Below are positions 169-64,000 of a stretch of DNA of 64,000 nt, piece after piece. The first letter of the stretch is position 1, and each line of letters opens with the position of its first letter. The stretch covers positions 241,676,001 to 241,740,000 of the forward strand of contig CM126205.1 in assembly GCA_052327205.1 (NCBI GenBank). Direction: 5' to 3'. The stretch is from Somniosus microcephalus. Lineage: Eukaryota. A program made the position numbers and the translations under genes. Below the pieces are notes generated by a model. That model saw only the letters and a list, made by a program, of their open reading frames with translations, was not told where the DNA came from and did not search any database.

Positions 169-450
169 AACCACCAGTGTTTATCAGGAAACTAGAGCCA
201 TCAAAATTACTGAAAAGTGGTGATTCAGCTCGGTTTGAATGTGAAGTGACTGGCACACCTGAAATTAAAGTTACCTGGTATAGAAAAGACAAGCAAATTC
301 ATCCCAGTGACAAATACAGAATGTCATTTGTTAACTGTGTGCCAGTTCTTGAAATTCTTGCTAGTGATGTGGAAGACAGTGGAGAATACAGTTGTGAAGC
401 TAAGAATGAAGTTGGTAGTGAAAGTTGCAGTGCTACTGTAACAGTTAAAG
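169..450 (+). CDS. TTN: titin Ig exon, six-Ig repeat R1 pos1
   Basis: AG/GT, 282 nt, EPPVFIRK..ATVTVK. Confidence 0.93.
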
Positions 451-3400
451 GTCTGTGAAGATATCTTACTTCTAATTTTACGAATTTAGGCTGCATTTAC
501 AAGATATTTGTGGCATTTAACTTTTTTGGATCTAAGTGTAAAATTATATGTTTTAGATTGAATTTGTTATTTGTTCCTTTGTAGAACCTCCATCTTTCAG
601 AAAAGAACTTGAATCTCTTGAGGTGCTCAAAGCCTCTGACATCATTCTTGAGTGTGAAGTGGCTGGTACAGCCCCATATGAAGTTTCTTGGTATAAGGAC
701 AATAAGCAAATAAGGCCTAGCAAAAAGTACAAGGCGATCTGCCAAAACTCTTTAGTTAGTTTACATATTCTTAAATGTGATACCGTAGATGTCGGTGAAT
801 ATCAATGCAAGGTATCAAATGAGGTGGGAGATTGTTCCTGCAGTTCTGCAGTGGCTTTGAAAGGTTAGTAAAGACTTAGCAAGTGCTTCTGTTCCATTAT
901 ATCACATTCATTTTGTTTCACACTAATTATCAGTTGATTTTGCAATGATTAATCAGAGAAATCCTATATTTATTATATTTCATTTTAAAAACAGAATCTC
1001 CATCATTTGTTAAGAAGATTGAAAATATTACTGCGCTTTTGGGAACTCCTGCTATGTTTCAATGCACTGTGAAAGGTTCAAGCCCAATTTCTGTAACCTG
1101 GCAAAAAGATAAAGCTGATGTCACCGAAGATGATAACACTAAGATATCTTTTGAGAAGGATATAGCTACACTGCAAATTGGTTCTGTTGAAAAACATCAT
1201 GGTGGGAAGTTCCTTTGTCAGGCAAAGAATGACGCAGGAATCACAAAGTGTATTGCAAATTTGGTAGTGAAAGGTTGGTTTAAAGATTATTAGTGTGTGT
1301 GTTAAAACTTCAATTATTTAAAAAATTTAACTGCTCTAAATGTTTTAAGTTGTTTTAATTTCATAAAGGCTGTTTTGAAGCAGTTGAAGCAAATACAGCA
1401 CAGTATGTGCTGGAATGGTTAGACCGTAAAAAAGTCTTTAAAAAAATTGGGGGCTAGAAATTGCTGGGAAAATAATGGCGCGTTCACGGCACCCGCCATT
1501 ATTAGCCTGTAAAAAAACCAGCAATTTATGGCAAGGAAGAGATACACCATTAGTTGCGAATTGCCACAAATTGCTGGACTATTTGCTGCTAGCCTCGCAA
1601 AAACGGGAGCTTGCCGTTCCTCTCCATGAGTGTCAAGAAATTGCTGGATTTGTGCCGTAAATACGAATTAATCTCACCACAAATATTTAGGGCTGGTATT
1701 TCATGTCATAAGGACACTGTCAATACTGTGATTTATGATCCTGACATGAAACTCAACCTTGGAGGCCAAGAAAGAGAAAATTGAAACAATCAAGTCTTAC
1801 TCCTGCAGGTAGTAAATTGTTCAGAGGTTTTTAAAATTAAAAATTTTAATTTTGTTTTCTTACTTTTGTTTTCTGTCTTTTTAAATCTCTCTCTTAATCC
1901 AATCTTTCTTTCCCTCTTTATTTCTCTTTCTGTTTCTAATTTGTCTCTAATTGACCCTATTTCCTTCTCCATCGTTAACTCTGTTTCTTTGTCTATCCTT
2001 AAATTTAATTGGTTAATGGTTCAGGAGGTCCCAGATGCCCCGTTCACATCGCCGCACCAATTATCGATTTGCATTTCCAGCAATTTGCGGCACAAAAATA
2101 ATACGATCTGAAGGGTGAAGAAAAAAATTGATTTCACGGCACTCGCTGCGAGATGCGCCACTCCAGCAATTTCTGGACCACTCTCCAGAGAATAGAGAAA
2201 ATGGAAGAAGAGTATAATACAACAATATTTAGAGTCATGAGAATAACTGATTACATTAATGTGAAGTTGATGCAGTTATTAGAACTGTGACCAAAAGAAA
2301 GAATAACTGAAAGAATTTAGGCATTGGTTCTTAATGTGTGGAGTTTGCACATTCTCCCCGTGTTTGCGTGGGTTTCCTCCGGGTGCTCCGGTTTCCTCCC
2401 ACAGTCCAAAGATGTGCAGGTTAGGTTGATTGGCTATGATAAAAATTGACCCTTAGTGTTAGGGGGATTAAATACATGGGGTTACGGGGATAGGGTGGGA
2501 TATGTGTTGGTGTAGGGGTTACGGGGATCGGGTGGGATATGTGTCGGTGCAGGCTCGATGGGCCAAAATGGCCTCTATCTGCACTGTGGGGTTTCTGTGA
2601 TTCTGTGATAGACAGGTGTAAAATTGCGAAGTTGTTAATGCATGCAGTTAATACATTATTTTTTTAATTAAATAAAATGGAATTGGATGAATATTTGTTA
2701 AATGAGAAATTAAAACAGTTGCATAACCAGAATTTCCCAGAACTTGAGAAAGGCATTAACAAATAGTATAGTTTTTACAAGCAGAGTTTGTGGAAATAGT
2801 TCTGTGATATATTGAATAGCTTGGCTCAAGGAAAGATAATTAGGTGGGCCAAAATGGCCTTTTCTTGTTTCTTATATTCTTGCGTTCTAATATTCTTTTT
2901 CTGTCACAGAACCTGCAAATATTACAGAGAAAGCAGACTCTATTAGTGTAACTGCAGGCGAGCCAGCAACGCTGGACTGCAGCTTTACAGGAACACCAGA
3001 AATTAAAGCCAGGTGGTTTAAGAATGGCACAGAGTTGACGACTGGTAAAAAATATAAAATCAGTCTTACAAATAAGGTTACAAGTTTAAAGCTTCGGACT
3101 ACCGAGAAGGAGGATAGTGGTGAATTTACTTGTGAGGTCGAGAATGATGTTGGTAGCAGCAGTTGCAAAGCTTCTATTACAGTATTGGGTTGGTATTCTT
3201 ACTCTTCCATTTCATTGCATTTACTGCAATATTTAAAAGAAACAGAAATTATTTTGAAAGAAATTATAGCCTTTTCCTTTCCTACTATGTGTTGGACAGA
3301 TCGCATAGTTCCACCGTCATTTAAAAGGAACTTAAAAAATATGGATGGCATCAAAACTTCTTTCATTAAGATGGAATGCAAGATCTCCGGTTCTCTTCCA

Positions 3401-6400
3401 ATGAGTGTGCTCTGGTATAAGGACGATGAAGAGATAACAGCTAATGAAAAATATAAATTTTCTTATCATGATAACATGGCGCAGTTGGAGATTCATCAAC
3501 TAGAGATGACAGATGGTGGAACTTACACTTGCAGAGCAACAAATGCTGCTGGAACTGACCAGAGCAACGGTGTCTTGACTGTGAAAGGTTTGAAATGTTG
3601 TCACAAATTTCTTAATTGCTTACGAGAGTTAACTAGTTCAGCTAATATCTTCCTTTTAGTTACCACAAACATTACTTGTTATGCATCTTAGTTTGCTACG
3701 TTGACAAACATCCTGAAAATACCATACGTTATACTTACATATTTATTCTTGTACTCACTTATTTTGGCATACCTTTTGAAAGAAAAGTACTCTATTTTCC
3801 TTTTATGTTCTTGCCATAACTGCAATTTTCCTCTGGAAATTTTAGAGCCTCCGTATTTTACTATGAAGCCTTTGTCCCAGGATGTTGTGCCTGGTTCCAA
3901 AGTACAGTTTAGAAGTGTTATAAGTGGGACACCTCCAATGACGATAAAATGGTTCAAGGACAATAAGGAGTTGGTGCCTAGTAATTCATATTACATTTCA
4001 AAAGAAGGCTCAACAAGTATGCTACAACTGCATTCAGCAAAAGTCTCTGATACGGGTGACTACACTTGTCAAGTCAAGAATGAAGTTGGCACAGAATCGT
4101 GTGCTGCAAATCTTTTTGTCAAAGGTGTGGATTTTCTTAACAATGTTTCTATGTAACATTGTGCACAGTTTTATTTTGCTATGTTTCTTAAAAACATTGT
4201 AAATCTTTATCTGATAGCTCCATTTCTCTTACACATTTCTTTTTGTGTCTGTTCTTTATGTAGCCTGTCTTTATTTTTATTTGTTACATTCTATGATCAA
4301 CCTGAATCTTCCTTCAACATTATTTCTATGTCTTACTTTTCTCAGAGCAATGAAAATGTGTTTTTTTTTGTTTCCAATGGTTTTGGTTTTTGTGTCATGA
4401 TGTGACAGTAGGCTACAATGATTTTTGATTATGTACTTAGTTTAAATATATATTAGAACTGGGTTAGCCAAACTAAGGCAGGTGAACCATATGCAATCTG
4501 TGAGATCCAGGAAATTAGTTTCTATTTACACTTGTTTTTCTTATTCAGCTGGCTCCTCCTGTTTGAATTCCACAGGTCTTAAGGTTTAGAAAAGGTTCTC
4601 ATTGCTACTCCCTTATTGGTGGATAAATCCTAAATTTGAATACCACGACCTGTTAGCTTGCTAGTAGCTTGACATAGATCCAAAATTAATTTAAACCTTA
4701 TATGTGGCTTGTATGTAACTGCCCCTCAAAGACAAAATATTGAGATTTCTGTTATTGAAGATTGTTTTTAGGAAAGATAGCAGTGCTTTACTAAAAAATA
4801 ATTCCCTGGGTGACATCACACTGCATGACCCATAATCCCAAGAGGTGCGTGGGATACGTCGCCAAACATCATAGGTGGTTTATGTTTAAGGTGATTTATG
4901 TTGTGTATGTGAAATATCAAAACAAATCAAAAGAGAGTGGGAGACTATAAATGAAGAGATACAGAAACAGAAAGGATGGATTGAGCTTAGCAGTGGTGAG
5001 AAAGGGAGAGGCATCACTGGAGGATGATGGAAAAAGCAATAGATGAACAATTGAATGGTTTTAGAAGAAAGTAGACAGGCATAAGCAGATGAGTAAGAGT
5101 AGTAGAAAGCAGTCAGAGACTTCTTTGTACTTTTACCACTACCATGAGAATTACTGCCATGCTTGATGATGACAATGGGGAGCACAAATGTGCTTGCCAT
5201 GGAGCATTCAGGTCTTGTCAAAGGCCAGTCTTGAGAAATGTATGCAGAGCAAGATCAATATGAAAATTAAGTTTAGTACCAAATCCATGAGTTAGTTGCA
5301 AAAAGGAATGGCAAGGTTTCTCATTTTCACAACAGTATTGACAGAAGTGACTACTAAACTTTTAATTCCCCCAACATTGCTGGTTAACTCATAGTGCAGC
5401 ATGAACAAAGGAGACATAGCATTCACAAAACATACAACTCAAGGAAGCAGATCTACCACAATAGATGCAGTTACCCGCACTTCACTAGAAGCAATGCATG
5501 AATTGCCCTGGCTTAGTAGGGAGGGTGTGACTCAGGTGTGCTGTTTTGCCCATTTTGTGCTACAGGGATGGTAAAGGTCACCAGTGCCCTCCAATTTTAT
5601 GCTGCATCCCTAGCAGTCACTGTGAGAGCTTTCCTACCTATCAATTTGCCCATTTTCTTTTCTTTCCTTTCTGTGTTTTTCAACTTTATCTTTTAAACAT
5701 GACAACAATGTGAATTTAGGCAGGGTAAATTGAACCATGTAAATTCCTTCCAGCAGTACATTCTCTTTACCACTCTGGTGTGTGTAATGCAATTTGCAAC
5801 AGCCTTCCTTGCTGTTTCTCTGAGTTAGTGCAACATTTTTTGTGTCTAATAACAAGGGTTTTTAAATTCTTGCCCAGATATCCATTATCATTTTTAGAGA
5901 ATCCAAATTCATATGTGGTAATTCATTCAGTTGTCTGTGTGAGTGCTGGTTTTTTTTTCATTGCTACCTTTAACAACTCATAGGCGTATCACCTATTTTG
6001 AGTCCTTTGTTATATTATGATCATTTTTCCAGACTTGCTCAACGGTCCTCACAATGGTTGCTCTTAAGTTCATGTGGTCTGTCACAAATGGTCATGTTTG
6101 TTGTGTCTAATGTAATTTTGTAGACCACCCCTTAATCTCTCCAGCCCAAAAGAATTCATTGTGTTTTTCAGTCATGACCTTCATGTACGAGTCATAAGAA
6201 CATAAGAACTAGGAGCAGGAGTAGGTCATTTGGCCCCTCGAGCCTGCTTCGCCATTCAATAAGATCATGGCCTCAACTCCATTTCCCTGCCCGCTCCCCA
6301 TAACCCTTGACTCCCTTACCATTCAAAAATCTGTCTATCTCCACCTTAAATATATCCAATGACCCCGCCTCCACAGCTCTCTGGGGAAGAGAATTCCAAA

Positions 6401-9400: not shown

Positions 9401-12400
9401 CTCACCTCATTGGCGTAGTGGCCACAGTACTACCCTGGGGCTAGAATGAGCTAGGAAAGCAGGAACTCCTGGCTCCACCCCCTGACAACATTTGTCTTAA
9501 GAGTCTGGAAAATCCCAGAAATGGCAGAGGCTTGGTGTATCTGGATTTACAATGGAACCCCAACAGATTTTTGGGGACAACTTTCTTTTGAGAAAAAAAA
9601 CACTCAATATTAATTTGATCTCAATTAAGCTTTTGAAATTTGCCCCTTTGTTATTCAAAATTATTTGAAGGAAAGCTACTAAAAGTTGAAAAGCTAAAGA
9701 GAAATATCACATCAATAGAGTTTAGTTAGATACACTCTATATGCTCAAACTGCATAATCCAAATTCTGCTCAGAGTCACAGGTCTATGCACAAATATCAA
9801 TTCTAAGCCCAGGTTTTTGGGAGAGGCTGAGGCATTCAAGTAAAATTATAATGAAGGCATTAAAAGATGTAAAAGACAATTCAGTGGCTAAATTCAATCA
9901 TGTTATTGTGAAATATCTAATTTTTAATTTTTTAAAAGTTTTTTAAACCCTAATTTTGGACATTAGAAATTTTAGTTGCTGAAGAAAGAAGTGACTGCTG
10001 AAAAAATTCAGAATACATTTTGAGAGAAGTGTGAGAATGCAGTGGCCAGATTAAATAATCATTGACTAGCTTATATAGGCAAAACCCATTACAAATGTAG
10101 ATATAAAAGAAAAAGTTGACACAAAAAGTGTGGGAAATACATGACAACTAGAAGTCAAGTGTTGCAGATAGGAAGTGTGCACACAGTTAAGTTTTTAATA
10201 TATATTACGGATAGATATATGTCTGTAAATAGGTGATAAGGCAGTTATACTGATCAAGCAGATAATGGCCCAGAAATTCAGGTCGAGGGCTTCCCGCAGG
10301 TGTAAGCCCCCGACCTGCACTTACCTTGCGCGCCGGCCGTTGAGCTGTGGGCCCCTGTGGAATTGCGATCCTGGGCCTCCTCCAACTGCCGGCGCGCAGT
10401 GCTTGCGTATCCCAGGGGCGCAGTTAGCTCGATGCGTCCCCTGGGGTCACGTGGGCCATGGGGAGCCAATCAGAGTAGGGAATGCTTCATTCATAAGTTT
10501 GACAGGAAGGGCTGTCAAACTTATAAATACTATAAGCCCCAAAACATCACTAAATCTTCAAATAAATTTTTAAAAATCAAATTTTTTAAATAAACTATAA
10601 ATTACATGAAATAACTATTTTAAACAATAATTTAAATTTTTGAAAAAAATAATTTTATTTTCTAACGAGGCTAAAAATAAACTTACCTTTCTTTAAAGTA
10701 TTTAAAAATAATAAACCTGTGGAAAAAATGTTTTAATTTTAATTAATTCACCACTTACCTTGTAAAAAGCAGTCCTTGCAACTGCTTTTTATATGTGTAA
10801 CTTCTGGAGACTTACCCTCCCGGGAAAACCTGCAAAAAAAAATGTAAGTTCGATGCGCACGCGCAGCCTCTCCTGCGCACGCGTTCAACCTCTGAACCCC
10901 TTCTTTCAGGGGAACAGAAGTGCCGGTTTCCAGGAAACCGGCACTTCCATTGGGCTTACGGGTGAGTACCCCGTGCGTACTCACCCGTGGAGACCCGAAT
11001 TTCTGGGCCAATGTGTGAAATGTAACCTCAATTTATTTTTGAAGATATTTTTGATGCAAGCATTTTTGGAGCTAGATTTTGCTCTATTTATGAAAAAAGA
11101 CACTCACATATTTGAATGAACATGAATTTCCTGATATTGTTCCAAGATGTCAATAGTGCATAGTATGATAGTTGTTAGTTATGTGATGAGTTGTCAAAGT
11201 GTAATTTTTCAGGGGACTTACAAAAGTGTTTAATTAAGTTGTATACAAATAAGGTCAATTAGAAATCAATAACAGATAATGTGTTTTCTCCATAATATAT
11301 TTGTGATGATTTAGAGGTCATACTAGTCATCACTAGTTTTTTTTTACCTTCAGTTGAGTGCACATAAAATCTTTTGGGTTTTTTCTCATTCAATTCGGTA
11401 CATTTTGGTTTTATAGAGCCTCCAAACTTCATTAAGAAGCCAGATCATACAATATTATTGAAAAAAGGAAGTTCAACATGTCTTGAGTGTACAGTAACTG
11501 GCACACCTGAGATCAAAATTACCTGGTACAAGAAAGAAAGTGAAGTTCAGCCAAGTGACAAATTCAGGATGTCGTTTGTTGATTCTATATCAGTCCTTGA
11601 ATTAATTGATGCCAGCGTGGAAGACAGTGGACATTACACTTGTAAAGCAGAGAATGAAGCTGGTTTTGACAATTGCAATGTTACAATTACAGTTAAAGGT
11701 GTGTAGCCAAAAAAATTAATAATGGAACCAATTTTGACAATTTGCTTTTTAAATGTTTTCCAGTTTGGTCAGTTTCTAAATTCTTTTGCTTTACTTGCTT
11801 TTTTTTTAGAACCTCCTTCTTTTAGAAAGAAACTCAAACCTGTTGAGGTAATAAAAGGCAGTGATATCACTCTTGAATGTGAAATGGACGGTACAGGCCC
11901 ATTTGATGTCACTTGGTATAAGGACAATAAGCAGATTCGATCTAGTATAAAATACAAGATGATCTCTGGAAAATCTTTAGTTAGTCTTTTTATTCAAAAA
12001 GTCGATAATTCAGATGCTGGTGAATACCAATGCGAAGTAACAAATGATGTGGGAAGTTGTTCTTGCATTGCTGGAGTCAGATTAAAAGGTCAGTTATCAA
12101 ATGCTGATCATTTTCTTCTTTGATATTTTCAATAATCCCATTTTGCAGTTCATTCTTACTTGGTTTTATTACTTTAGCATGAAGTGTCTGATCTTGTATC
12201 TAATTCACACAACTCTTAACTCTTAACTTTAAATCAGAACCCCCTTCCTTTGTGAAAAAGATTGAAAACATTACAACATTATCTGGAAATCCAGCCACTT
12301 TTGACAGTCAAATAGAAGGCTCAGCTCCCATATTTGTTACATGGATGAAGGACAAAGATGAAATCAGAGAAGATGACCATATTAAAATATCTTTTGAGAA

Positions 12401-24400: not shown

Positions 24401-27400
24401 AATAAATATGAAAAATCTTATTGTAAACAATCACAGTGGATTTGATTCATTTAAAGCACTTCCAAATTTTTGCTGTTTGAGTTGATTGGCTGTGCTTTTG
24501 TCACTTTATCTTGGACAGATCAACTAATTCCCCCATTGTTTACAAGAAAATTACGAAAAATGGACAGTGTTTTAGGATCTTTCATACATATGGAATGCAA
24601 AGTTTCTGGTTCTCTTCCAATGAGCTTTTCATGGTATAAAGATTACAAAATAATAACAACTAGTGAAAAATACAAAGTGTTATGTCAAGATAACACACCA
24701 ACTTTGGAAGTTAATCAACTAGAGATTTCAGATCATGGAACTTATATTTGCAAAGCAACCAATTCGGTGGGAAGTGATGAATGCAGTGGTATCTTAAATA
24801 TAACAGGTTTGAAAGATGAACTTGCTTTGTTTCAGCTCCTAATATAGCTTTTGCATATATAAACACTTGTTCAATTTCTGATTTTTGCTTGTTGCTCTAA
24901 AAAGATAAATATATTTAGTATTTAAAATTTATTATGCAGTTTATAGTACGTTCTCATTTTAGCTCTGCTTTGCCATTTTATTTTTGTTGACATCTTACCC
25001 AATGTAAACTAAGTACTATAGGGAGCCAATTCTATTATTTTTTTTCACCTGACTTTTAGAGCCACCAAGTTTTATAGAAAAACCTGTAGCCCAGGAAAGT
25101 CTACCTGGTTCCACAGTGCAGTTTAGAAGTGTTGTGAAAGGAACTGCTCCACTATCTATAAAATGGCTGAAGGATGGCAGGGAACTGATGTCTGGAGCTG
25201 ATTGCTTCATTTTAAATGAAGGTTCAACAAGTTTACTCGAGTTGTTTTCAGCTAAAGTTTCTGATTTGGGTGACTATACTTGTGAAGTCAGCAACAAGGT
25301 TGGAAGCGCCACTTGTACAACAAGACTATTTATCAAAGGTGTGGAATTTAGGTTCACTTGTTAAACCATTGTGAAACACTGTTAAAAATTCTGACGTCTT
25401 CATTTTGAAAAGTTTACATGTCTGTAAAGTTATTTTTCTTTGGTTTGTTATACACTTTTCTCTCGTTTGTTATTTTTTATGTTGCTATCGTGCTGTGTGT
25501 TATCTTCCTTTATTCCTTTATATGTGGCATGTGTTGCATTGTTCCTTTTTATGTTGTATGGGTTTGTTTCAGACTTTTACATTTATAATTAAGTTTACTA
25601 CATTTTTTTCTCTAGAACCTCCTTATTTTATTAAGAAGTTAGATCTTACAGCAGTATTTAAAAAAGGAGAGACAGCAAGTTTTGAGTGCAAAGTAACTGG
25701 CACACCTGAAATCAAAATCACTTGGTTCAACAACTATCGTGAAATTAGAGCCAGTGAAAAATACAGAATGTCATTTGCTGATTCAGTGGCAATATTTGAG
25801 ATTGCTGATATAAGCCTGGATGACAGTGGGAATTATTCCTGTAAAGCACAAAATGAAGCTGGCAGTGAATCTTGTGACATTAAAGTTACAGTTAAAGGTG
25901 TGTAAAAAGTCCTAGTTATATTTTGCAACAGAAGTTAACTGGTCTTTTTGAAAATGTTGCAAGTGCCTTGTGTTTAATTATGGAATATTTGGGAGCCTAT
26001 TTTAAGTTTAACATCACTTTAACAGCCTGTTTTTATAGCTAGTTTTTCATTGGCCAATAAAAATTATCATTCAATTGCCCCAAGCTCCTTAATTCAAACT
26101 GAAGAATGAAATGTAATGTAAGCATGTTAATAGAAAATTTAAAATTTGACTCCAAAGGACCGATTTTAATTACCAGTGGGAAGCTGGCAGATGCAGACCG
26201 TGCAGGCGTCTTCATCAGAGGCCCCGGCAGATTTTAACTGCTAGGCCTTATTTGAATGCCAGCGTTCAGCTGCTCACCCGTTTAGAGTAGAAAGTGGCAG
26301 CTGGCTGGTGGGGGGAGGTGAATATATCTGCCCTGTAGCACCAGGAAATGGCAGAAAGTGGCAACAAGGTAAGTCTGGGAGTGGGACTTTCCAAGGGTCT
26401 CACTGCTGCTTAGGAGAGAAGCCCAGGGCATTGAGGCCCAGACATTCTTTGTAGGGCCAGGAGCTCTCATGCTCCTCCTGGTCCCATTGTAGAAAGATGT
26501 TTAATTTGTCTCGAAGACCTCGCTATCTTCCCGACAACTTTACCTGGCGTGCAGCCGTGGCAGGCATCCTGCTCAGAAGGACATTAAAGTGCCTTTTCCG
26601 TCCCATGTGCATCATTGGACCCCAATTTTCATTTATTGGTGAGGTTCCTGCTGTTGTCCAATGGACATCTCAATCGCCGACAAAAACAAGTTGTGTTAAA
26701 ATGGGGAATAGGCGGGAACAGAGTGAGAATTGGAGATGCTCCATTTTAACTGCTCCCTCTCTTCTTTCCTGCTGGTTGGGAGATTTAAAGTTCCCCGTTT
26801 AATCCTTTTTAAATGCTAAGAGTCATGTGCAACTAGGTAAAGTTATTAATGTTCAGGGCTGATAATGCCTTGAAAATTGTAGATATATATAAAAAAGAAT
26901 GAAGGGTATTTATTCGAGTATTTTACTAATCTGCATTAAATAATAGCTGCAGGAGAAAACATCTGTGTGTTTGTTTGTTTTCCATGATTTGCAATCACAC
27001 CTTAAAATAAGAATCACGCAAATATTTTTTCACGTCAATGGTTATTGTTAGGAGTCACTGTGCAAAACCTGAATTTAGTGGCCTGTGATTTGTAAACCAT
27101 GTTAATGTGTTTAATCTTTAGAACCTCCCACATTTACGAAGAAGCTTGAACCAGTTGAGGTAGTAAAAACCAGTGATTTCACTCTTGAATGTGAGGTGGC
27201 CGGTTCAGGTCCCTTTGAAGTTATGTGGTATAAGGACAATAAACAAATTCGACACAGTAAAAAATACAAAATGATCTCTGACATTTCTTTATCAAGTCTT
27301 TGCGTTCTAAAGTCTGATAGCTCAGATGTTGGCGAATACAAGTGTTCAGTAAAAAATGATGTGGGGAGTTGTTCCTGCAGTTCTACAGTCAGTTTGAAAG

Positions 27401-30400
27401 GTCAGTTACAATCCAGTTCTAGTAAGTGGTTTCACCTGGATGTTGTGTGGTATCTGTTTCGTTATCATGTTCTTATTAGGTATTATTGAATGTCTTGAAG
27501 CATAATATTTTTAATAATTGAACGTTGGTTGTATAATTTTAAATTATAACAGGGTATATTCTCTTTACTTTAAACTAGAACGACCAACCTTCGTACAAAC
27601 AATAGAAAATGCAACAGTATTTTCTGGAAATTCTGCTGTATTTCAATGTCATGTAAGAGGCTCAGTTCCTATAGCTACAAGCTGGAAAAAAGATGGCAAA
27701 CATGTCAAAGAAGACGATAATGTAAAAATGTCCTTTGAAAACAATATTGCCACATTACAGATTATTAAGGCTGAAGAAAATCACAGTGGAAATTACATAT
27801 GTCAGGCAAAGAATGATGCGGGAACTGCAAAATGCTTTGCTACATTGGCCGTAATGGGTTAGTAGGAAGTAATGAGCACAAGTATTGTCCACAAATTATT
27901 GATCTATGTCTCATAATATTTACTTTTCCACAGTAAAATTATTTTAATGTTTTTAAATTAATTCTGTGATCATCAAGGTGAGGAATGTTATAATTGGCAG
28001 TGGGAACCTTTTCCATGTTGAGCAAACATTGTCAGGCACTCAGTGCACCACAGTTAAATGCAGGATATAGCTCCCTGTACTCTACTCCAAAAATATGCCT
28101 CTGGCAAATCCTCAGAAGAATATTTCCTCTGTATCATTTTTTTCCATTTCCCTCACTATCTATTTTGTGAGGTCCCTGAATTAGATTGTTAACTTAATGC
28201 CCAGTTAGGGACAGTTTAGTGCCATTGGGAGCTGGATTGAGACTGCCCAAACTTATTTCACACAGAACACTTACAGCAAGCATGCAGAAGAGACTTTTAT
28301 TGCAGCAGTCTTGACTGGATTTGTACCCAAGTCCATGATGTATAAACCTATTGTGTAGTCTGTTTCCCCCCAAATCTATTATCTTAAAATAGCAATCCGA
28401 GCATAAATATTGCATCGTTCTCCTGATGTAAATGATCTAATTTTTCCCACAGAACCTGCGAATATCATAGAAAAAACTGAGCCACTCACAGTGACTTCAG
28501 GAAACCCAGCCATTTTGGAATGTACTGTAGCTGGTACACCAGAATTAAAAGTTGCATGGTTCAAAAGTGGAAAGCAACTGGAATCAAGTAGAAAATATAA
28601 GATGAGTTTTGTGAATAAAGTGGCCAGTCTAAAAATTTTGGCTGTTGGAATGGATGACAGTGGTGACTATACTTTTAAGGTCCAGAATGAGTTTGGAGCC
28701 AACAGCTGCAATGTTTCTTTGACAGTGTTAGGTCAGTGATTAATTTGTGTTGATGGCATCGATTTCATAGAGCATTTCTTTTAAAACCAAAGCTTATCAC
28801 AAAGTTTAAAATAATTGACACTTTTTTATTGATGTTTTGTGATATTTTTCCTTTATATTGGACAGAACAAATAATTGCTCCATTGTTTACAAGAAAACTA
28901 AAGGAAATGGGCAGTATTTTAGGATCTGTTGTACGAATGGAATGCAAAGTTTCTGGTTCTATTCCAATGACCGTTACTTGGTATAAAGCAGACAGTGAAA
29001 TATCAGCTAGTAACAAATACAAGATGTCATTTCAAGACAACATGCTGTCTTTAGAGGTCACTGAGTTAGACTTTTCAGATGGTGGAATTTACACTTGCAA
29101 AGCAGCAAATTCAGCAGGAAAGGATGAATGCAGTGCTGTCTTAAGTATAAAAGGTTTGAGACATTGCTTTGCTACATTTCTTTCTCATCAGTACTTATTT
29201 TCTTAGTTTATATTTTTTGTTTGCTACGATAGTGAAGTAACTAAATAAACCTATCGACCATCTCTATCTTCTTTTTGTTAAGAGTTCTTAAAAAGTTGAA
29301 GGATATGTTAACATGTGTTAATCATAAAGTTGTCTTTAATCTGATCATGTCTTCTAGTTTGTACATACATCTGAGTTAATTAAATGCTTTTTTCTTGTGC
29401 GAATTTTAGAGCCCCCAAGCTTTACAGACAAAGTAATGTCCCAGGATGTTGTACTTGGTTCTACAGTGCAGTTTAAGAGTGTTGTGAAAGGAAGCACACC
29501 ACTCTCTACAAAATGGTTCAAAGGGGACAGGGAATTGATGCGTGGTGTGGCATATTCTATTTGGAATGAAGGCTCAACATATTTTCTCGAGCTGTTTTCA
29601 GCTAAAATATCTGATGCGGGTGCTTACACCTGCCAAGTCAGCAACGATGTTGGCACAGATGCCTGTTCTGCAGAATTGTTTGTTAAAGGTGTGCATTTCT
29701 GGAGTTTTGCTGCAGTTCTCTTTTATATAAAACTGTTTTCCCTGCTTTGCTATCTTAAAAGTTTAGAAACATCAACTTGTTTTCTTGAAGGTTGGTCAGC
29801 TCTAGTGGTAGAACTTTACACTGCCAACCATGGAAAGGGGCCAATGGTGGACATCAGGCATTCAAATCTGGGCTGACAGTCAGACTCAATCGCCGAAATT
29901 TTAATTTGAGGCGGGGAGGGAGCAGAGGGGCTGGAAAGCGGTCTGGAAACCCGAATTTAATGACATGGCCTGATTAGCATTTAGAATCCCTGTTTTGCGC
30001 CTGCAGCCAGCCAGATGGAGAGGCTGGCTGGCTGTCAGGCGGGTAGACCTGCGGCACCAGGCTGCAGAGAGGAGCGCTGGGATGTGGGGGAGTCGGTAGC
30101 CAGTGTGTGATCGGGGACCCGAGGGGGGAGGTTTGAAGGCCGAAGGATGAGCAGGGGCCGGAGGCGGGAAGTTGGCAGGTGATTGAAGGCCAGGGGATGA
30201 ATTGGAGGCTTGGGGCTGGGTGGGGGGTGCGGTTGGAGGCCGGAGGGGGTCCAAGGCCTATCCAAGGATCGAAAGCCAGAGAGGGAATTGAAGTTCGGAG
30301 GGGAGGTTGGGGTGAGATCGGAAGGGCCGGGGTATGTCCGATCACGGGCCATTGGCGAAGCAGGAAAGCTGGATCCAGTGAGTAAGTGAAAAGGCACTTA

Positions 30401-33400
30401 ACTCCTGGATCCAGCAGTCCTCGCCCTCCTTCAGCTGGCTGGTTCCCCGAGGCCCGGGAATCCTGCCCGCCCACTGTTAAATTGAAAATGGAGCTACAAA
30501 ATGAGGCACGCAGCCTCATTATAATTTTAAAGTGCAAACCCATCTCATGCAAGCGGGTTGACCGCTCGCCTCCATTAAATCCGGAAGTGGGCGGGTTAGG
30601 GTTGGGATTCAGATTTTTAACTCTTCAACCTCCCACTTGACCCCAACCCACCCATTTTTTGGGGTTAAAATTACCCTCCAAGTTCTTTATTAGGAAGCTC
30701 TACAGTTTTGCCATTAACTGCTAGGTGGAGCAGCATGTAATGGTGTGGAATTCTCTCAGTTCAAGGAAGAACTGGCAAACCCAAGAGTCCACACTGAAAT
30801 TGATTTGTATCATCTAATCATTAAAATGACAGTGATGGCAATTTTGAGGAATTTCACAGCCTGGAATGCCCCACCCCCAATATTGAAGGAAGAACCATTT
30901 TGGTGGAGGCAGCAATGAGAAAACCTGATAGCATATGAAAAAAGAAATGCTGTTTGCTTTACCATACACAGAGTATTTGAGTATTAAACTTTGATTTTCT
31001 TAAAGTTGTAAATTTGGTCTGTAAATGTTATATAACCAATTATTTATATCTAATGATTTGAATTGATTTTGATTATGCTTTAAATTAAATGTAGTCATAT
31101 TTTGGCTTCTAGAACCTCCTAGCTTCATTAAAAAGCTACATTCTTCAACAATACTAAAGAAAGGAGACTCAGCACGTTTTGAGTGCATTGTAACTGGCAC
31201 ACCTGAAATTAAAGTTACTTGGTACAAAAACGGTCATAAAATTATAGCCAGTGACAGATGTATCATGTCATTTGATGGTTCTGTGGCAATTCTTGAGATG
31301 ATTGATGTTATTCTGGATGACATTACATGCTACATCTGTGAGGCACGGAATGAAGCTGGCAGTGACAGCTGCAGCACTGAAGTTGAAGTTAAAGGTCTGT
31401 AGTAATGTCTTCTTTAGTCGGTTACAATATATATATGTTAGTTTCTTGAGCAGGGATACTATTAGTTTCTGTATTGTGGTTGATTTGGATTTCTTTATTC
31501 TGATTACTTTATAGAACCTCCCAGTTTTAGAAGGAAACTTCAATCTGTGGAAGTAGTAAGAAGCAGTGGTGTCACTCTTGAATGTGAGGTGGCCGGTACA
31601 GGGCCCTTTGACGTAATGTGGTATAAGGACAATAAACAAATTCCGTCTAGTGAAAAATACAAGATGATCTCTAAGAACTTTTTAATTAGTCTTCATATTT
31701 TGAAGTTGGATATTTCAGTTGTGGGTGACTATAAATGCACAGTAACAAATGATGTGGGAAGCTGCTCCTGCAGTTGTGTTGTCAGTTTAAAAGGTTAGTT
31801 ACATTGCGATAGGAAAGTACTTTTACTTGTAATATTGACATAAACAATATGTATTGCTACTTTATTATAATCAGGAAAGAGGACATAGCACAGTTTTAGC
31901 AGCTAACATTGTTGTAACATTGTAATGTTGAAATTTTTTAGGGAATAGGCCCATAAACAGTATTTATTGCTATTTTATTATAATCATGAAAGCGGACAGA
32001 GCAAATCACTCATATTTATTTCCGTGCCTGTTTATCTTGAACTAGAACCCCCATCATTTATAAGGAAGATTGAAAATGTTACAACATTTGTTGGAAATCC
32101 TGCTGCGTTTCCATGCCTTGTAAAAGGCTCACAACCTTTATCTATAAGTTGGATGAAAGGTAACGATGATATCAAAGAAGATGATAATATAGCAATTTCT
32201 TTTGAAAACAATATTGCTATCCTGCAAATTACAGCCGTTGAAGCAAAACATGGTGGGAAATACATTTGTCAAGCCAAAAATGATGCAGGGATTGAGAAAT
32301 GTTTTGCTGCGTTGATAGTAACAGGTTGGTAGGAAACATTTAGAAATATGATTGGCTAAAATGTAAAAGTTCTAATTTATTTATCATACTAATGGGCAAA
32401 AGAAGACCACATTAACATATTGACAACATTACTCAGCACAGTATTTTTTCTTAACAGAATCTGCAAAAATTGTTGAGGGAGCAAAGTCACACAGTGTAAC
32501 TGTAGGAAATCCAGCAATTTTGGAATGTACTGTAGCTGGTACACCAGACCTAAAAGTTAAATGGTTTAAAGATGGAAAGGAGCTCACATCTACCAGAAAG
32601 TGCAAATTGAGTTTTGAGAAAAACATGGCCAGTTTAAAGATTCTGTCGGTAGAGATGTCGAGTAGTGGTGAATATACTTTTGAGGTCCAGAATGAATTTG
32701 GAGTCGACAGCTGCAAAGCTTCCTTGGCAGTATTAGGTTAGTATTTTAAATGTATTGAGAGATTTGGATGTGAATAGGAATGCGGTTAAGTTGGTATTTT
32801 AGGCTACTTTTACATCTTAAGCTTACAGGTTGTGCTCTATATTGTACAGATCGATTAATTGCTCCAACATTTACGAAAAAGTTAAAGAATATGGGCACTA
32901 CATTGGGGTCTTTCATGACCATGGAGTGCAAAGTATCTGGTTCTCTTCCAATGAACATTCATTGGCATAAAGATGGGAAGGAGATATCAGATAGTAGCAA
33001 ATATAAACTATCACAGCGAGATAACACTTCATCTTTGGAGATTAATCAACTAGAAATCGCAGATGGTGGACTTTATACTTGCAGAGTATCAAATGTAGCA
33101 GGAAGTGATGAATGCAGTAACACACTTACTGTGAAAGGTTTGAAATATTGCCTTTGTGTTTTCTACTCAATTTCTTAACATGATAGATGTAATTCGGATC
33201 ATATTTTAACCTCAGCAGAATTTCTTGAAAGTTTGAAATAATTACTCTGAATTTATTGAAGAGTTATATCGTTTATAACGCAAAAGTTGATGAATCTTTA
33301 TACGTGCTCTTTATTGCAACAAATATACTTTTTCTTCAATGAATTTTAGAACCACCAAGATTTATAGTAAAGCCAGTGTCACAGGAGGTCCCCCCCTGTT

Positions 33401-36400
33401 CTGCAGTACAGTTCAAGAGTGATGTGAAAGGAACACCTCCCCTGTCTTTCAAATGGTTTAAGGATGACAAGGAACTAAGTTCTGATGCTACATGTTGCAT
33501 TGTGATGGAAGGTTCATCCAGTTTTATACAACTGTATTCAGTAAAACATTCTAATACAGGATACTATACTTGCCATGTCACCAATGATGTTGGCACAGAT
33601 ACTTGTACAGCAAAATTGTTTGTGACAGGTGTGGATATTTTGTGTTGTGTTGTGTTGTGTTGGTATATTTTATCAGTGTCTTGTTTGTGTTTTACTTGTC
33701 AATGTCTTTAAGTTGCTGAGTATTCTCAGTACATACAAATCTTCTTTCTTGTCTGTGTTCTGTGTTAGCATCTTGTGTTCTTCATGACATCAATTGTATG
33801 TAACCATCTTATACTCTTTATCACATCAATTCTATATCAGCTTCTTACACTCTTCTTGATCTCAAGATTATATTATCACCTTGTACTCTTAATTAAAGCA
33901 ATTCTATTGTATGATTCTTATATATAACACTAAAAAGTTATATTTGACTTTTTAAAAGAATTTGGAACATTCTCTTATGCAATTTTTATTCAGTATTCCA
34001 TTTCTTTCCACATATTTCACAATTCCAATTATTCCAAAATGTAACATTCTTGTAACTCTGGCACTAAATATATTCTATTTTGGTTTCCTAGAGCCCCCAA
34101 CTCTCACACAGAAGCTGGAACCATCCAAAGTACTGAAGAAGGGTGAATCAGCACATTTTGAGTGCAAAGTGACTGGCACGCCTGAAATCAAGGTTTCATG
34201 GTTCAAGAATGATGTTGAAATTAGTGCTGGTAACAAATACAAAATGCATTTTGATAATTCCGTAGCAGTTCTTGAAATCATTGATGCTGATTTGGAAGAT
34301 AGCGGTGATTACATTTGTGACGCTCATAATGAAGCTGGCAGTGTCAGTTGCAGTGTAGCTGTTACAGTCAAAGGTAGGTAGCTTTTTTCAGGTGCATATG
34401 AAAATGTTTCTCCAAGTTATAATGCAAGTATCTTTTCTTCATGAATGCATAAATGAGACAAATTATCTTCTTACAGAACCTCCTGTTTTCAGTAAAACAC
34501 TTGAGGCAGTTGATGTACTAAAAGGCTCTGATGTCATACTGCAGTGTGAATTCAGTGGTACATCTCCTTTTGAAGTTACCTGGTACAAAGACAAAAGGCA
34601 AATCCGAGCAAGTAAAAAGTATAAAATAACATATGAAAACCATGTAGCAAGTCTTCATATTCTTAAAGTAGAGACTCCAGACATAGGGGAATACATGTGC
34701 ACAGCCAAGAATGATGTGGGAAGTGACAATTGCACTGGCACATTAAATCTAAAAGGTTGGTAAATTTTCCAAATTGTACATTTAAATGTTACTACTGTTA
34801 CAATTTTAGGAACACATTTCTTTAAGTTTATGTTTCACATGTAAGGAATATTTCTTTAATTCTTCAGAGCCAGCAGTATTTGTTAAGAAACTTTCAAACA
34901 TTTCTTCTGTGCTTGGAGAGTCTGTAACCTTACAAGCTACCATTAAAGGCTCAGAACCAATTAATGTAACTTGGATCAAGGAAAAGGAAGAAGTGAAAGA
35001 TAATGAGTACATGACTATTACCTATGAACAAAACATTGTTACGTTACATATTGCAAAAATGGAGCCAGTTCATGCTGGAAAGTATGCTTGCCAAATCAAA
35101 AATGATGCTGGAATGCAAGAGTGCCCTGCTACAGTATCACTCCTGGGTCAGTAACCTAATAATGTCAATATATTAGATGTTTCTAGAATTTAATTCATAT
35201 TTGAAAGGATTACCAACTATTATTTTATTTGCCAATGTATATCAAGAATATTTTGTAAAAAGAAGTTTTCTTCTTCTAGAACCTGCCACAATAGTGGAAA
35301 AAGCAGAATCTGTCAGTGTAACCGTAGGAGATCCAGCAACTTTGGAATGCATTGTTAGAGGCACACCAGAACTAAAAGCGAAATGGTTGAAAGATGGTCA
35401 AGAGTTGGCATCTGGTAGAAAATATAAGATCAGTTTTCAAAATGAGATTGCCAGCCTAAAGATTCTATCTGCAGAGAAGGCAGACAGTGGTGAATATACT
35501 TTTGAAGTCCAGAATAACATCGGTAGCAGCAGCTGCAAAGCATCAGTCAGCATTCTAGGTTTGGTTCACTACTTTTTCTTATTCATACTGTTTTCTTTAG
35601 GATTTCTTAAATCTTTTTTTTTAATCCCTTTATAATCATGGTTTATTGGTGTAACTTAAACAGATCGAATTATTCCACCAACATTTACAAGAAAATTAAA
35701 GAAAGTGGACGGTATCTTGGCTTCTACCATCCAAATGGAGTGCAAGGTGTCTGGATCACCGCCCATTGCTATGTCTTGGTTCAAAGACGGGCAGGAGATT
35801 GTACATGGAGAAAAATATCATCTTGCATTTGGAGATAATACATGTGATTTGAAAGTAAATTCATTGGAAATGTCAGACGCTGGCAATTATACATGTAAAG
35901 CAACAAATTCTGCAGGAAGTGATGAATGCAGTGGTGTCTTGACCGTGAAAGGTCAGTTTATTTCTTAATGAAAATTCCAGTATTTTCCTTACCCGTGTAT
36001 ATAAATTATGTTTATCATTTGTATTCTAAATGATTTTTGTTTGGTACTCCACTGGTCTATAAGTGTGTAAATGTCACCATGTGACATGACACAGCCTTGT
36101 CTAGCAAGAAGGTCTCAAGTCAGTGGTTGGAGACATTATAATTGGCCTGCGTGCCCTGAGATAGAAAATTGGGGAAAAAATCAACTAGCAGTCCTGTCGT
36201 CACTTTCTTGGGACTCCAGCTTGAAAGTGCACTGATGTGGATGTTGGGTCAGGACAGAATCAGGCTCAGCTATGATCATTTCATGGTCAAATGGCCTGCT
36301 GATGCCGATCTTCCAGACTTAGCCATGAAGAATGGTCAGTTGGGTGAGGTACTGGAAGGCTGCTATTACCTGTGGATTAGCAGGAGTCACTGCCATCAGG

Positions 36401-39400
36401 AAAGAGGGTAACAAAGGGGTAATAATTGTGAAAAAAGAGAAAAACTGATTTTGTTTTTATTCATAATAAAAAATCAAGGTCTTAAATTTAAATTTCTGGT
36501 AAATTTATAACTTAATGTTACATTACACTATTTTGCTTTGACCCCTTTAGAACCGCCCTCATTTGTGAGCAAACCTGATCCTCAGGAAGCTTTACCTGGT
36601 TCAACAATGAGATTTGTAAGCGTTGTTACTGGAACAGTTCCACTGAAAGTGAAATGGTTTAAAGGTAGCACTGAACTGGTACCAGGAAGGAAATGTCAAA
36701 TTTCTTTAAGTGACTCAACAGCAGTACTAGAGCTACTAAACGTAGATCCTTCCCAAAGTGGAGACTATATCTGCCAAGTCAGTAATGAAGCTGGCAAAGA
36801 TTCTTGTACAACAAAATTATTTGTGAAAGGTTGGTAAAGTACAGATTTAAAGAAAGAACATTTTGCTTGAGTTGCTAGGATTTTTTTGACAACTGTTTTC
36901 ATATGTATCTTTACCAGAACCAGCAGTATTCCAGAAGAAATTGAAGGATTCTAGTGTTGTATTGGGAAAGTCAGTTTGTCTAGATTGCACATACTCTGGT
37001 ACCCCAGAAATCAAAGTCACCTGGAAGAAGAATGGATCAGATATATTCCAGTCTGAAAATCATATTATAACTACTACTGAAACATCTTGTATTTTGGAGA
37101 TACTCAACAGTGTTAGAGACGATGGGGCAAAATACACTTGTGAGGTAGAAAATGATGCTGGAAGGGACACCTGCCATGCTGAAGTGAAAATACTAGGTTT
37201 GTTCCTAATCATGCATCAACATTTTGTTTCTTTGGCTTTCTTTTTTTATATGTATAATATGCATATTCTTTCATTGTTGATATATATTGATTATACCTTG
37301 ATTATACCTTAGAACCACCAACGTTTGTCCAACATTTAGAGCCTCTGGAAATAACAGTAGGAGACTCAGGATCTTTTGAATGCACACTTACTGGAACACC
37401 TGAAATCAATGTGGCTTGGTACAAAGGAGACACAAAACTGAGAGCCACCCCTAATTGCAAAATGGAGTTTGTGAACAACGTTGCAAAAATGGAACTGAAG
37501 AAAACAACTTTGAGTGACTGTGGGGAATTTATATGCAAAGCTGAAAATAAAATAGGGGCCTGTTCATCAAAGGCCATGCTCACTGTACAAGGTGATATTG
37601 CTTGGCAGATTGGCATAAGTCTGCATGCCATACATTTCTCTGTTTTAATCTTTTCATTGTGGTTCAAAAAAATCATTTCCTGAATAATCACAGTTTTGAT
37701 GAACTCATTCTGTAACTGTTTATTTTACAGAACTTAAAACTGCGCCTTCTTTCACAAGAAAAATTAAGAATATGGAAGGAACTCTTCATCTACCAGTGAC
37801 ATTTGAGTGTCGTATTTCTGGTTCAGTTCCTATTGAAACTTCTTGGTTTAAAGATGGTGTAGAATTGACCAGTGCAGAAAACTTAATTATATCTTTCATA
37901 GAGAACATAGCATCTCTTACAATTCTTAACGCTGAGATGGATCATGCTGGTGAATACACTTGCAAAGCTTCCAACATGGTTGGAGATGCTTCATGTAGTT
38001 CCAAACTAACTCTGAAAGGTTTGTTGGGTAAAATATTTACTAAATATCCTCAGCTTTTTGTCTTTATTATCCTTAACCTTAATTTTGTAGTATTTACACT
38101 TTAATATCTGCTTCTTTTACCTGTCATTCCTAGATGTTATTGCTTTACTATTGATAGTATTACGACAGAAAATAATTATTTCTTGTTATATTTTTAGAAC
38201 CTAGAGTTGCCCCTGTATTTGACAAAAAACTAGAACCAGTAGAAGTTACCACTGGGCAAAGTGTAGAGCTTGAATGCCATTTAATTGGCTCTCGCCCAAT
38301 TAAAGTTATTTGGCTGAAGGGTGACAAAGAGATTCGATCAGGTGGCAATTACAAGATAACCTGTGTGGAAAATACACCTCATCTGACAATTCTAAAAGCA
38401 GACAAGGGAGACTCTTGCCAGTACATTTGTGAGGCCAGCAATGATATTGGAAATGACTCATGCAAAACGCAAGTGACTGTAAAAGGTATTGCTCAATATC
38501 AGTTATTATTCTTTTCCCTCTGGTACAGTATTCCAGGCTAAACTTTATTAATTTGGAAGAAGAATGTTGCTACTTATTAGTTTTACTTCTTCATTATGAT
38601 TGTTTTCTAGTTACTTGTTCAGTTTTTGTTACGTTATCCATGTGGAGCTCTTCTTTTGCCAGTAAGACATTCGGGAAAGGCAATTACTTAAAAACAAATT
38701 TAAACTGTGAAAAGTAACATCAAAAGTGGTGAAAATCTTTTTAATCCTCATCAATAACTCATAATTTTACTCACCCACCACCATCCATTTTTTCAGGCAT
38801 ATTTACAGGTCTTCACTTTTTTTAAGATGTCTCACGTGGAAACGTAACATCACTGAAGAAATGTAAAATATATCTATATCTTTTGGATATTTGTAATATT
38901 AATTCATGTTGCTATATACCTGTCTGTTACAGATCGTAAAATTCCACCAAGCTTTACTAAAAAACCTCTTGAAACAATACAGGATACAGAAGGAATATCT
39001 ATAAAACTTGAAGCTCGTGTTGCTGGTTCACAACCAATGTCTGTAACCTGGTTCAGAGATGAACAAGAGATCTTGCAAACTGAAAATTATGAATTGTCAT
39101 TTAAAAATAATGTAGTAAAGTTGAACATTAAGAAAGCACATCTTACTGATTCTGCTGTTTATACGTGTGAAGCAGCCAATGAAGCAGGCACTGCAAGGTT
39201 TAATGTGTCTGTACTAATCAAAGGTTAGTGATGAAGACTATTATTTTATCACTCTTGGTCCCTGATAGTAGTGGATGGGGAATCTAATGCTTGCAAATTC
39301 TACTATTGCTTATTTAGACAAATATATTGGTAATTTTTTTAAAGACTTTACTTGATATCCTTTATTATTCTTCTGTCTAAATAGGCATTCTAAACTCTTT

Positions 39401-63921: not shown

Positions 63922-64000
63922 GTACAAGATTACTCGGCGACTCTTACACCAACAATATCTTCACATAACGCAACGTTTTGTTGTTTCCATTACAATGGAA

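Follow-up and report, generated by a model that had tools for sequence, protein, structure and literature searches.

The window analysed here, a 64,000-nt stretch of Somniosus microcephalus DNA (contig CM126205.1), covers the differentially spliced middle-Ig segment of the titin (connectin) gene and contains seven six-Ig units (R1 to R7), one ten-Ig unit (T8), two closing Igs, the N2A element and PEVK exons. Positions within a unit are denoted p1 to p10, and the features are as follows:

169..4124, plus strand: six-Ig super-repeat R1 (exons 169-450, 585-863, 995-1273, 2910-3188, 3300-3587, 3846-4124)
11417..14708, plus strand: six-Ig super-repeat R2 (exons 11417-11698, 11810-12088, 12238-12516, 12619-12897, 13885-14172, 14430-14708)
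14920..17603, plus strand: six-Ig super-repeat R3 (exons 14920-15201, 15286-15564, 15737-16015, 16157-16435, 16784-17071, 17325-17603)
17881..21952, plus strand: six-Ig super-repeat R4 (exons 17881-18162, 19385-19663, 19840-20118, 20714-20992, 21129-21416, 21674-21952)
22588..25338, plus strand: six-Ig super-repeat R5 (p1 a copy of R7p1; p2 chimeric; p3-p6 copies of R3)
25616..29688, plus strand: six-Ig super-repeat R6, a near-identical copy of R4 (98-100% nt)
31113..33628, plus strand: six-Ig super-repeat R7, grouping with an elephant-shark unit in P0017 (100/100)
34092..38485, plus strand: T8, the one ten-Ig super-repeat in the window (p1-p5 34092-34373, 34477-34755, 34868-35146, 35280-35558, 35664-35951; p6-p10 36551-36829, 36918-37196, 37313-37591, 37731-38018, 38198-38485)
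38933..41660, plus strand: two closing Ig exons (I78-like 38933-39223, I79-like 41373-41660)
45195..47324, plus strand: N2A element (I80-like 45195-45477, the located part, without its 5' part; UN2A exon 45841-about 46024; I81-, I82- and I83-like exons starting at 46363, 46719 and 47074)
51731..63965, plus strand: short exons rich in PEVK, with which the PEVK segment opens (approximate borders)

A scan for splice sites and Ig motifs located 50 Ig exons and a targeted scan added four; all 54 are intact, bounded by AG...GT and in phase 1, and the 15,201 nt that they make up in sequence order contain no stop codon. The exon lengths run 282-279-279-279-288-279 seven times in R1-R7 (169-33628), then 282-279-279-279-288-279-279-279-288-288 in the ten-Ig unit (34092-38485), followed by 291 and 288. 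The original prediction of seven such cycles, with one ten-Ig unit directly before I78/I79 and N2A, is thus borne out within the window by the exon scans, the open frame and the position clades described below. Each exon encodes one I-set Ig domain, in tandem and with the frame kept (Pfam I-set above cut-off in all three exons tested). Mean amino acid identity between domains is 57% at lag 6, 66% at lag 12 and 55% at lag 18, compared with 31-34% at the remaining 15 lags up to 18, and adjacent domains are at most 47% identical to each other.

When the 54 exons were masked, an Ig search returned four further matches with E<1e-5, all of them in N2A (45188-47309), whose Ig domains we take to be I80-I83. 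The introns of the window hold no position 7-10 Ig remnant, since the next best match in this search reached only E=0.15, and the window accordingly has one ten-Ig unit with no ten-mer remnants elsewhere. In a search of solved structures, PDB 3B43, the skeletal I-band tandem of titin and presumably I65-I70, was the top match for all three query exons, each with its own best domain: T8p9 on domain 2 (95 bits; other domains ≤58), T8p10 on domain 3 (93 bits; ≤70) and R3p1 on domain 4 (96 bits; ≤54). The closing Ig exons show 61-80% identity to the domains found after the ten-mer in fragments from Acipenser and Albula, and the UN2A exon matches titin in PDB 7NIP (E=4e-18). The exon structure, the 3B43 register and the order of closing Igs, N2A and PEVK all fit, and the segment is the vertebrate titin middle-Ig region.

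In the domain tree, each of positions 1-6 forms a single clade of eight domains (support 98-100/91-99), a clustering equalled in none of 500 label shuffles; T8p7, which has a long branch, falls within the position-1 clade. The unit-level tree (20 rows) places all seven six-mers with six-mers, and none with ten-mers, while the window ten-mer groups with those of newt, lizard and bonefish (100/100). Together with the published counts given below, this tree supports the earlier proposal that six-mers were amplified here and ten-mers in mammals, a single ten-mer being ancestral. R1-R7 group with the six-mers of bony vertebrates, and a single clade for all chondrichthyan six-mers was not rejected as a constraint (p=0.17; p=0.13 in a second tree). 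R1 joins the middle (second ancestral) six-mer of teleosts and amniotes (95/92). In tests on groups chosen after the tree was seen, R1 plus the first six-mer is rejected (p=0.016), whereas R2-R7 may stem from the third six-mer (68/79) or equally from one of the alternatives, which are retained at p=0.13 and 0.37. Because R1 is of the second ancestral type, one further six-mer probably lies upstream of the window, which would make eight in all.

The region from R3p2 to R7p2 holds one 12-exon Ig block, about 7.7 kb with introns, twice in tandem, so that R3-R6 are largely two copies:

15320..23030, plus strand: block copy A (12 exons, introns included)
23030..31555, plus strand: block copy B (12 exons, introns included)
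22990..23268, plus strand: chimeric junction exon R5p2 (mosaic zone about 23024-23108)
24375..27194, plus strand: core of copy B, free of substitutions relative to 16640-19457 (2,817 columns, two small indels)
29891..30681, no strand assigned: 791-nt insertion in copy B only (partial relatives at 53527-53610 and 54217-54435)

The copies differ by 143 substitutions in 7,691 columns, of which the inner 5,677 columns hold only 19 differing sites (0.3%). The longest clean run, 2,817 columns, compares with a maximum of 648 in 2,000 permutations; it was matched in none of the 2,000 for the whole block and in one of 2,000 for the inner columns. The identity tract is patchy and spans introns as well as exons. 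Intron mismatches number 0/1,751 in the core, 31/171 at the 5' edge and 43/419 at the 3' edge, so that edge introns differ by 10-18%, being only 82-90% identical where the core reaches 100%. R5p2 is R7p2-like in its upstream intron and 5' end and R3p2-like in its 3' part and downstream intron; it is in frame and carries substitutions of its own. The count of seven six-mers stands, but not as seven cycles of independent origin: R5 duplicates R3, and R6 duplicates R4, almost without change, and the seven units represent five distinct lineages. The 12-Ig duplication behind two of the seven units had been overlooked in the original prediction.

The window six-mers are orthologous, as judged by sequence, to those of other cartilaginous fishes. 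The closest match is the sevengill shark Heptranchias (93.2% over 279 aa, versus 85.3% for Mobula), and per-domain identities are 89-96% for Heptranchias, 76-90% for Mustelus, 72-93% for Mobula and 71-78% for Callorhinchus; R2 is 74-86% identical to Mobula birostris P0013. Site patterns did not separate shark from ray (3, 2 and 2 sites), and it is the identity to Heptranchias that points to a shark, probably a squalomorph. The protein searches covered entries of up to 2,000 residues, a range that leaves out the full-length titins of human, whale shark, elephant shark, gar and coelacanth, and the trees draw on fragments with names, 34 of which were mapped among the first 121 matches and 8 more later; a homologue search with the single domain T8p9 gave one match among 88 candidates. 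Two Mobula hypostoma models, P0012 and P0074, which like the other Mobula models are fragments compared by sequence rather than genomic order, each span R4p4-p6 plus R7p1, with mutual identities of 80, 87, 86 and 69%. Between copies, amino acid identity is 69-87% in Mobula and 95-100% in the window. At p6, P0012 is nearer to the window shark (93%) than to P0074 (86%), and for R4p1-type domains two Mobula species share 71% identity, while one of them reaches 81% with the window shark (grouping support 85/78). In a concatenation of the four domains the two Mobula copies fall together (79/80, not starred), and window plus P0012 is rejected (p=0.018).

We consider it likely that this shark middle-Ig segment carries an old 12-exon doubling common to sharks and rays, whose copies were later made alike in this lineage through gene conversion or unequal crossing-over. 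To produce the doubling, position-2 exons that are paralogous and lie twelve exons from each other would have paired out of register, with the crossover inside them; such a crossover would double the block and keep the reading frame and register, because every exon is phase 1. At about the time when sharks and rays diverged, a chimaera-like state of six six-mer units would thereby have become eight, and the copies in this shark lineage would since have been overwritten by unequal exchange or conversion. Twelve extra Igs would lengthen the skeletal-muscle spring, and duplication in multiples of six would keep neighbouring domains unlike. Unlike neighbouring Ig domains are thought to limit misfolding. 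We hold a fuller version only tentatively, at somewhat below even chances: a single shark-ray 12-Ig duplication from six to eight six-mers, by a position-2-exon crossover without a transposon, in a block that still recombines and was recently overwritten here, with spring length perhaps varying in copy number within the species. As to a transposon, the 791-nt insertion is some 0.9 kb short of the end of the block, away from the junction, and therefore gives no support for such a trigger; a terminal inverted repeat was looked for in it and not found, and three LINE-like reading frames had no Pfam match.

The pairing of the Mobula copies and the rejection of window plus P0012 also fit a duplication confined to rays and dating from shortly after they separated from sharks. 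Taken further, the same block may have doubled independently, long ago in rays and more recently in this shark lineage with later conversion of the core, which would make it a recurrent hotspot. The window copies do pair together, as the Mobula copies weakly do, and edge introns still 82-90% alike are high for the age of the shark-ray split; however, at p6 and R4p1 one Mobula copy resembles the window shark more closely than it does the second Mobula copy, and whale shark too has six plus two units (PMC12241362), and we regard independent doubling as rather unlikely. Part of the identical core may have arisen in assembly, and 19 differences in the inner columns with 2.8 kb free of substitutions would be compatible with alleles. 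That copy B as a whole is falsely duplicated, through two haplotypes having been assembled one after the other, with a true count of five six-mers in the window, is nevertheless very improbable given edge introns that differ by 10-18%, an insertion private to one copy, a junction at a chimeric exon that stays in frame and has substitutions of its own, and rays that have the block twice. Finally, positions 1-6 are homologous one by one between six-mers and the ten-mer, as they would be if six-mers were degenerate ten-mers lacking positions 7-10, from an ancestor with many ten-mers; we give this almost no credence, as shark, teleost and tetrapod units fall into one clade of six-mers and another of ten-mers (100/100) and the window's introns hold no Ig remnant. 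A block still exchanging would be a natural case of recombination changing titin spring length, and a warning that shark assemblies can collapse or over-count such regions.

Hanashima et al. 2025 (PMC12241362) give six-mer plus ten-mer counts of 6+1 for elephant shark, 8+1 for whale shark, 3+1 for zebrafish and 3+3 for human, the last in agreement with the roughly three of each named in the original prediction. They describe one ancestral ten-mer, which cartilaginous fishes retained while multiplying six-mers to lengthen the tandem-Ig spring, and in elephant shark splicing removes most of the middle-Ig segment in heart but retains it in skeletal muscle. The original interpretation was therefore right but not new, and the main architecture is one more species for a published pattern; what is novel is only the doubled 12-domain block with near-identical copies. 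That source proposes, without testing, a transposon trigger for six-Ig multiplication, and leaves open how six-Ig blocks multiply, on which a junction in coding homology and a doubled unit of twelve domains bear. Our literature search on elasmobranch titin I-band duplication found this paper alone, and no report of Ig-domain tandem duplication or gene conversion in titin, or of concerted evolution in shark titin.

Elephant shark and whale shark resemble the window in having many six-Ig units, one ten-Ig unit, two closing Igs and N2A (PMC12241362), and the window exceeds three six-Ig units, as in the chondrichthyan-type architecture of that source. Six-Ig units number at least seven, and probably eight, here, compared with six in elephant shark and eight in whale shark; elephant-shark P0017 is 71-78% identical to R7 and R4p6. 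The 12-Ig doubling and the chimeric exon of the window, and the homogenisation proposed for it, do not appear in the text of PMC12241362. Teleost titin-a is like the window in having one ten-mer before an I78-like domain (Albula fragments) and a middle six-mer that groups with R1, but zebrafish and other teleosts have three six-mers without expansion (PMC12241362). Mammalian titin I28-I79 shares the ten position classes and the register (3B43 and mammal fragments); unlike in the window, the mammalian ten-mer was tripled and the six-mers stayed at three (human counts from PMC12241362). The triplicated PEVK exon block of human TTN is similar in kind, with recent near-identical multi-exon tandem copies in the I-band, but that block consists of nine PEVK exons and is LINE-1-linked (PMC12241362), whereas the window block consists of twelve Ig exons with its junction in a coding exon.

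The window contains 54 Ig exons on the forward strand (169-41660), of which 50 were recovered by a splice-and-motif scan and four by a targeted scan. All have AG...GT borders and are in phase 1, and joined they read through 15,201 nt without a stop. The exon-length cycle of the original prediction was recovered with the same lengths, as seven six-exon units (six-mers) followed by one ten-exon unit (ten-mer):

169-33628, + strand: six-exon units R1-R7 (exon-length cycle and scan)
34092-38485, + strand: ten-exon unit T8 (exon-length cycle and scan)
up to 41660, + strand: two closing Ig exons after T8, 291 and 288 nt
from 51731, + strand: PEVK-rich exons, downstream of the UN2A-containing area

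In the tree built from all 54 domains, positions 1-6 (p1-p6) each form a single clade of eight (support 98-100/91-99), a clustering equalled in none of 500 shuffles, and T8p7 falls among the position-1 domains on a long branch. When the window was searched with the 54 exons masked, four further Ig matches had E<1e-5, all at 45188-47309, and the next-best reached only E=0.15; a 62-residue exon in this area matches titin UN2A (PDB 7NIP, E=4e-18). The six-domain titin chain 3B43, which we take to be I65-I70, is the best solved structure for all three queries, with T8p9, T8p10 and R3p1 fitting best on its second, third and fourth domains, respectively. The available part of PMC9529554 discusses the I65-I70 structure with its PDB entry unnamed.

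By sequence, named fragments place the window within sharks and rays, with per-domain identities of 89-96% for Heptranchias, 76-90% for Mustelus, 72-93% for Mobula and 71-78% for Callorhinchus (93.2% for Heptranchias vs 85.3% for Mobula over one shared 279-residue span). The DNA probably comes from a squalomorph shark. Public annotation of five cartilaginous fishes presents pieces of the R1-R7 stretch as separate small genes (P0012, P0013, P0074, P0139, P0016, P0017, P0182 and P0183), some misnamed peroxidasin, roundabout or CAVP-target, and the stretch seems hard to annotate. R3p4 (16157-16435) and R5p4 (23892-24170) have a cysteine in place of the I-set core tryptophan; Mobula birostris (P0139) and Heptranchias (P0182) share this change, which is therefore old and tolerated. 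The R1-R2 intron (4125-11416, 7.3 kb) is by far the longest of the array, and an Ig search with exons masked found no Ig remnant in it. The R1p4-R1p5 intron (2891-3688 area) is 111 nt, in frame and stop-free, so that its retention would give 37 extra residues. Reading frames at 6276-7222, 47376-47885, 54603-54950 and 60004-60354 look like terminal parts of reverse transcriptases from CR1/L2-type LINEs; none of three tested had a Pfam match.

Self-comparison of the window revealed a 7.7-kb tandem duplication, introns included, which had been overlooked in the original prediction:

about 15320-23030: copy A, R3p2 interior to R5p2 interior, twelve exons
about 23030-31555: copy B, R5p2 interior to R7p2 interior, twelve exons

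The junction lies within a position-2 exon, R5p2, whose upstream intron and 5' end are of R7p2 type and whose 3' part and downstream intron are of R3p2 type; a mosaic stretch lies around 23024-23108. Identity between the copies is graded. Intron mismatches are 31/171 at the 5' edge, then 4/489, 0/1,751 (the core), 5/905 and 16/457 in the interior, and 43/419 followed by 4/120 at the 3' end, the edge introns being 82-90% alike. The longest substitution-free run spans 2,817 columns; when the 143 substitutions were scattered uniformly 2,000 times, no clean run exceeded 648 columns. With the inner 5,677 columns only, a 2,817-column run was reached in 1 of 2,000 trials. R5p1 (22588-22869) and R7p1 (31113-31394) differ at five codons, all five changing the residue and none silent, which is too few for a selection test. 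Copy B has a private, GC-rich insertion of 791 nt (29891-30681), probably a non-autonomous mobile element, with partial relatives at 53527-53610 and 54217-54435 (80% over 85 nt, 68% over 220 nt).

We infer that paralogous exons paired out of alignment and that a crossover inside them would have doubled twelve exons with frame and register intact, the middle of the copies being homogenised later through unequal exchange or conversion. A distinct event, a single-exon conversion, seems to account for R3p2 (15286-15564), which is 94% identical in nucleotides to R4p2 (19385-19663), within the exon only; the remaining five R3/R4 position pairs are 69-77% identical. Because R4p2-type domains of Mustelus (85%) and Mobula (77%) lie near R3p2, it is R3p2 that looks overwritten by R4p2.

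As to the age of the doubling, two Mobula hypostoma models (P0012 and P0074), whose contigs are given as equally long, both span R4p4-p6 and R7p1, and are mutually 80, 87, 86 and 69% identical; at p6, one is nearer to this shark (93%) than to its counterpart (86%). For the R4p1-type domain, M. birostris and M. hypostoma are 71% identical, and M. hypostoma and this shark 81% (tree support 85/78). From these identities, a large part of this block seems to be present in rays in two old copies. In the counts available from PMC12241362, the whale shark has exactly two six-mers more than the elephant shark. Against a shared shark-ray origin, the Mobula copies sit together over four domains (79/80), grouping the window with P0012 over these domains is rejected (p=0.018), and the still considerable likeness of the window's edge introns would also count against it. 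A pure assembly artefact is an unlikely source of the second copy, since the edges have diverged, the 791-nt insertion is private to one copy and rays appear to have copies of the block, but the assembly may have produced part of the identical core.

A tree built from 20 units, each concatenated over positions 1-6, sets five ten-mers (T8, newt, lizard and two bonefish) apart from 15 six-mers (from R1-R7, Mobula, elephant shark, newt and two teleosts) at 100/100. This rules out R1-R7 as ten-mers minus four domains, in agreement with the original prediction of expansion rather than loss. A second tree had 25 rows, with R5 and R6 omitted as copies and the first, middle and last six-mers labelled from their order within fragments and the published count of three. 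Here R1 joins the middle of three consecutive teleost six-mers and matching amniote fragments (95/92), and a grouping of R1 with the first one is rejected (p=0.016, for a group chosen after tree inspection). As none of the window's units groups with the first six-mer, a further unit probably lies upstream of the window, for a total of eight. The last six-mer is favoured as the origin of R2-R7 at only 68/79, and alternative sources are not rejected.

A longer tandem-Ig segment is taken to mean a longer, more compliant spring; with an Ig domain about 4-4.5 nm long, twelve extra ones would lengthen each half-sarcomere's spring by about 50 nm. Adjacent Ig domains are at most 47% identical, while domains twelve apart reach 100%, and the low neighbour identity fits the argument, made in PMC12241362 and PMC9529554, that similar Ig domains are seldom juxtaposed.

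Both the architecture and the evolutionary interpretation of it have already been published. PMC12241362 (Hanashima et al. 2025) gives six six-Ig units and one ten-Ig unit for the elephant shark, eight and one for the whale shark, three and one for zebrafish, and three and three for human. Its conclusion is a zebrafish-like ancestor, with independent lengthening of the segment in cartilaginous fishes and mammals. It also describes how the heart of the elephant shark splices out most of the segment, and puts forward as a hypothesis a transposon as the trigger of six-mer duplication. The original prediction of a single ancestral ten-mer and independent lengthening is nearly identical to that conclusion. 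Our search covered open-licence papers and preprints (for PMC12241362, its text) and found no report of shark titin with a doubled 12-Ig block or with homogenised copies; Fig. 4 of PMC12241362 may show paired whale-shark domains. Overall, the array is real and was correctly read; it extends a known pattern to another species, and the tandem block adds modest mechanistic detail, so far unreported.
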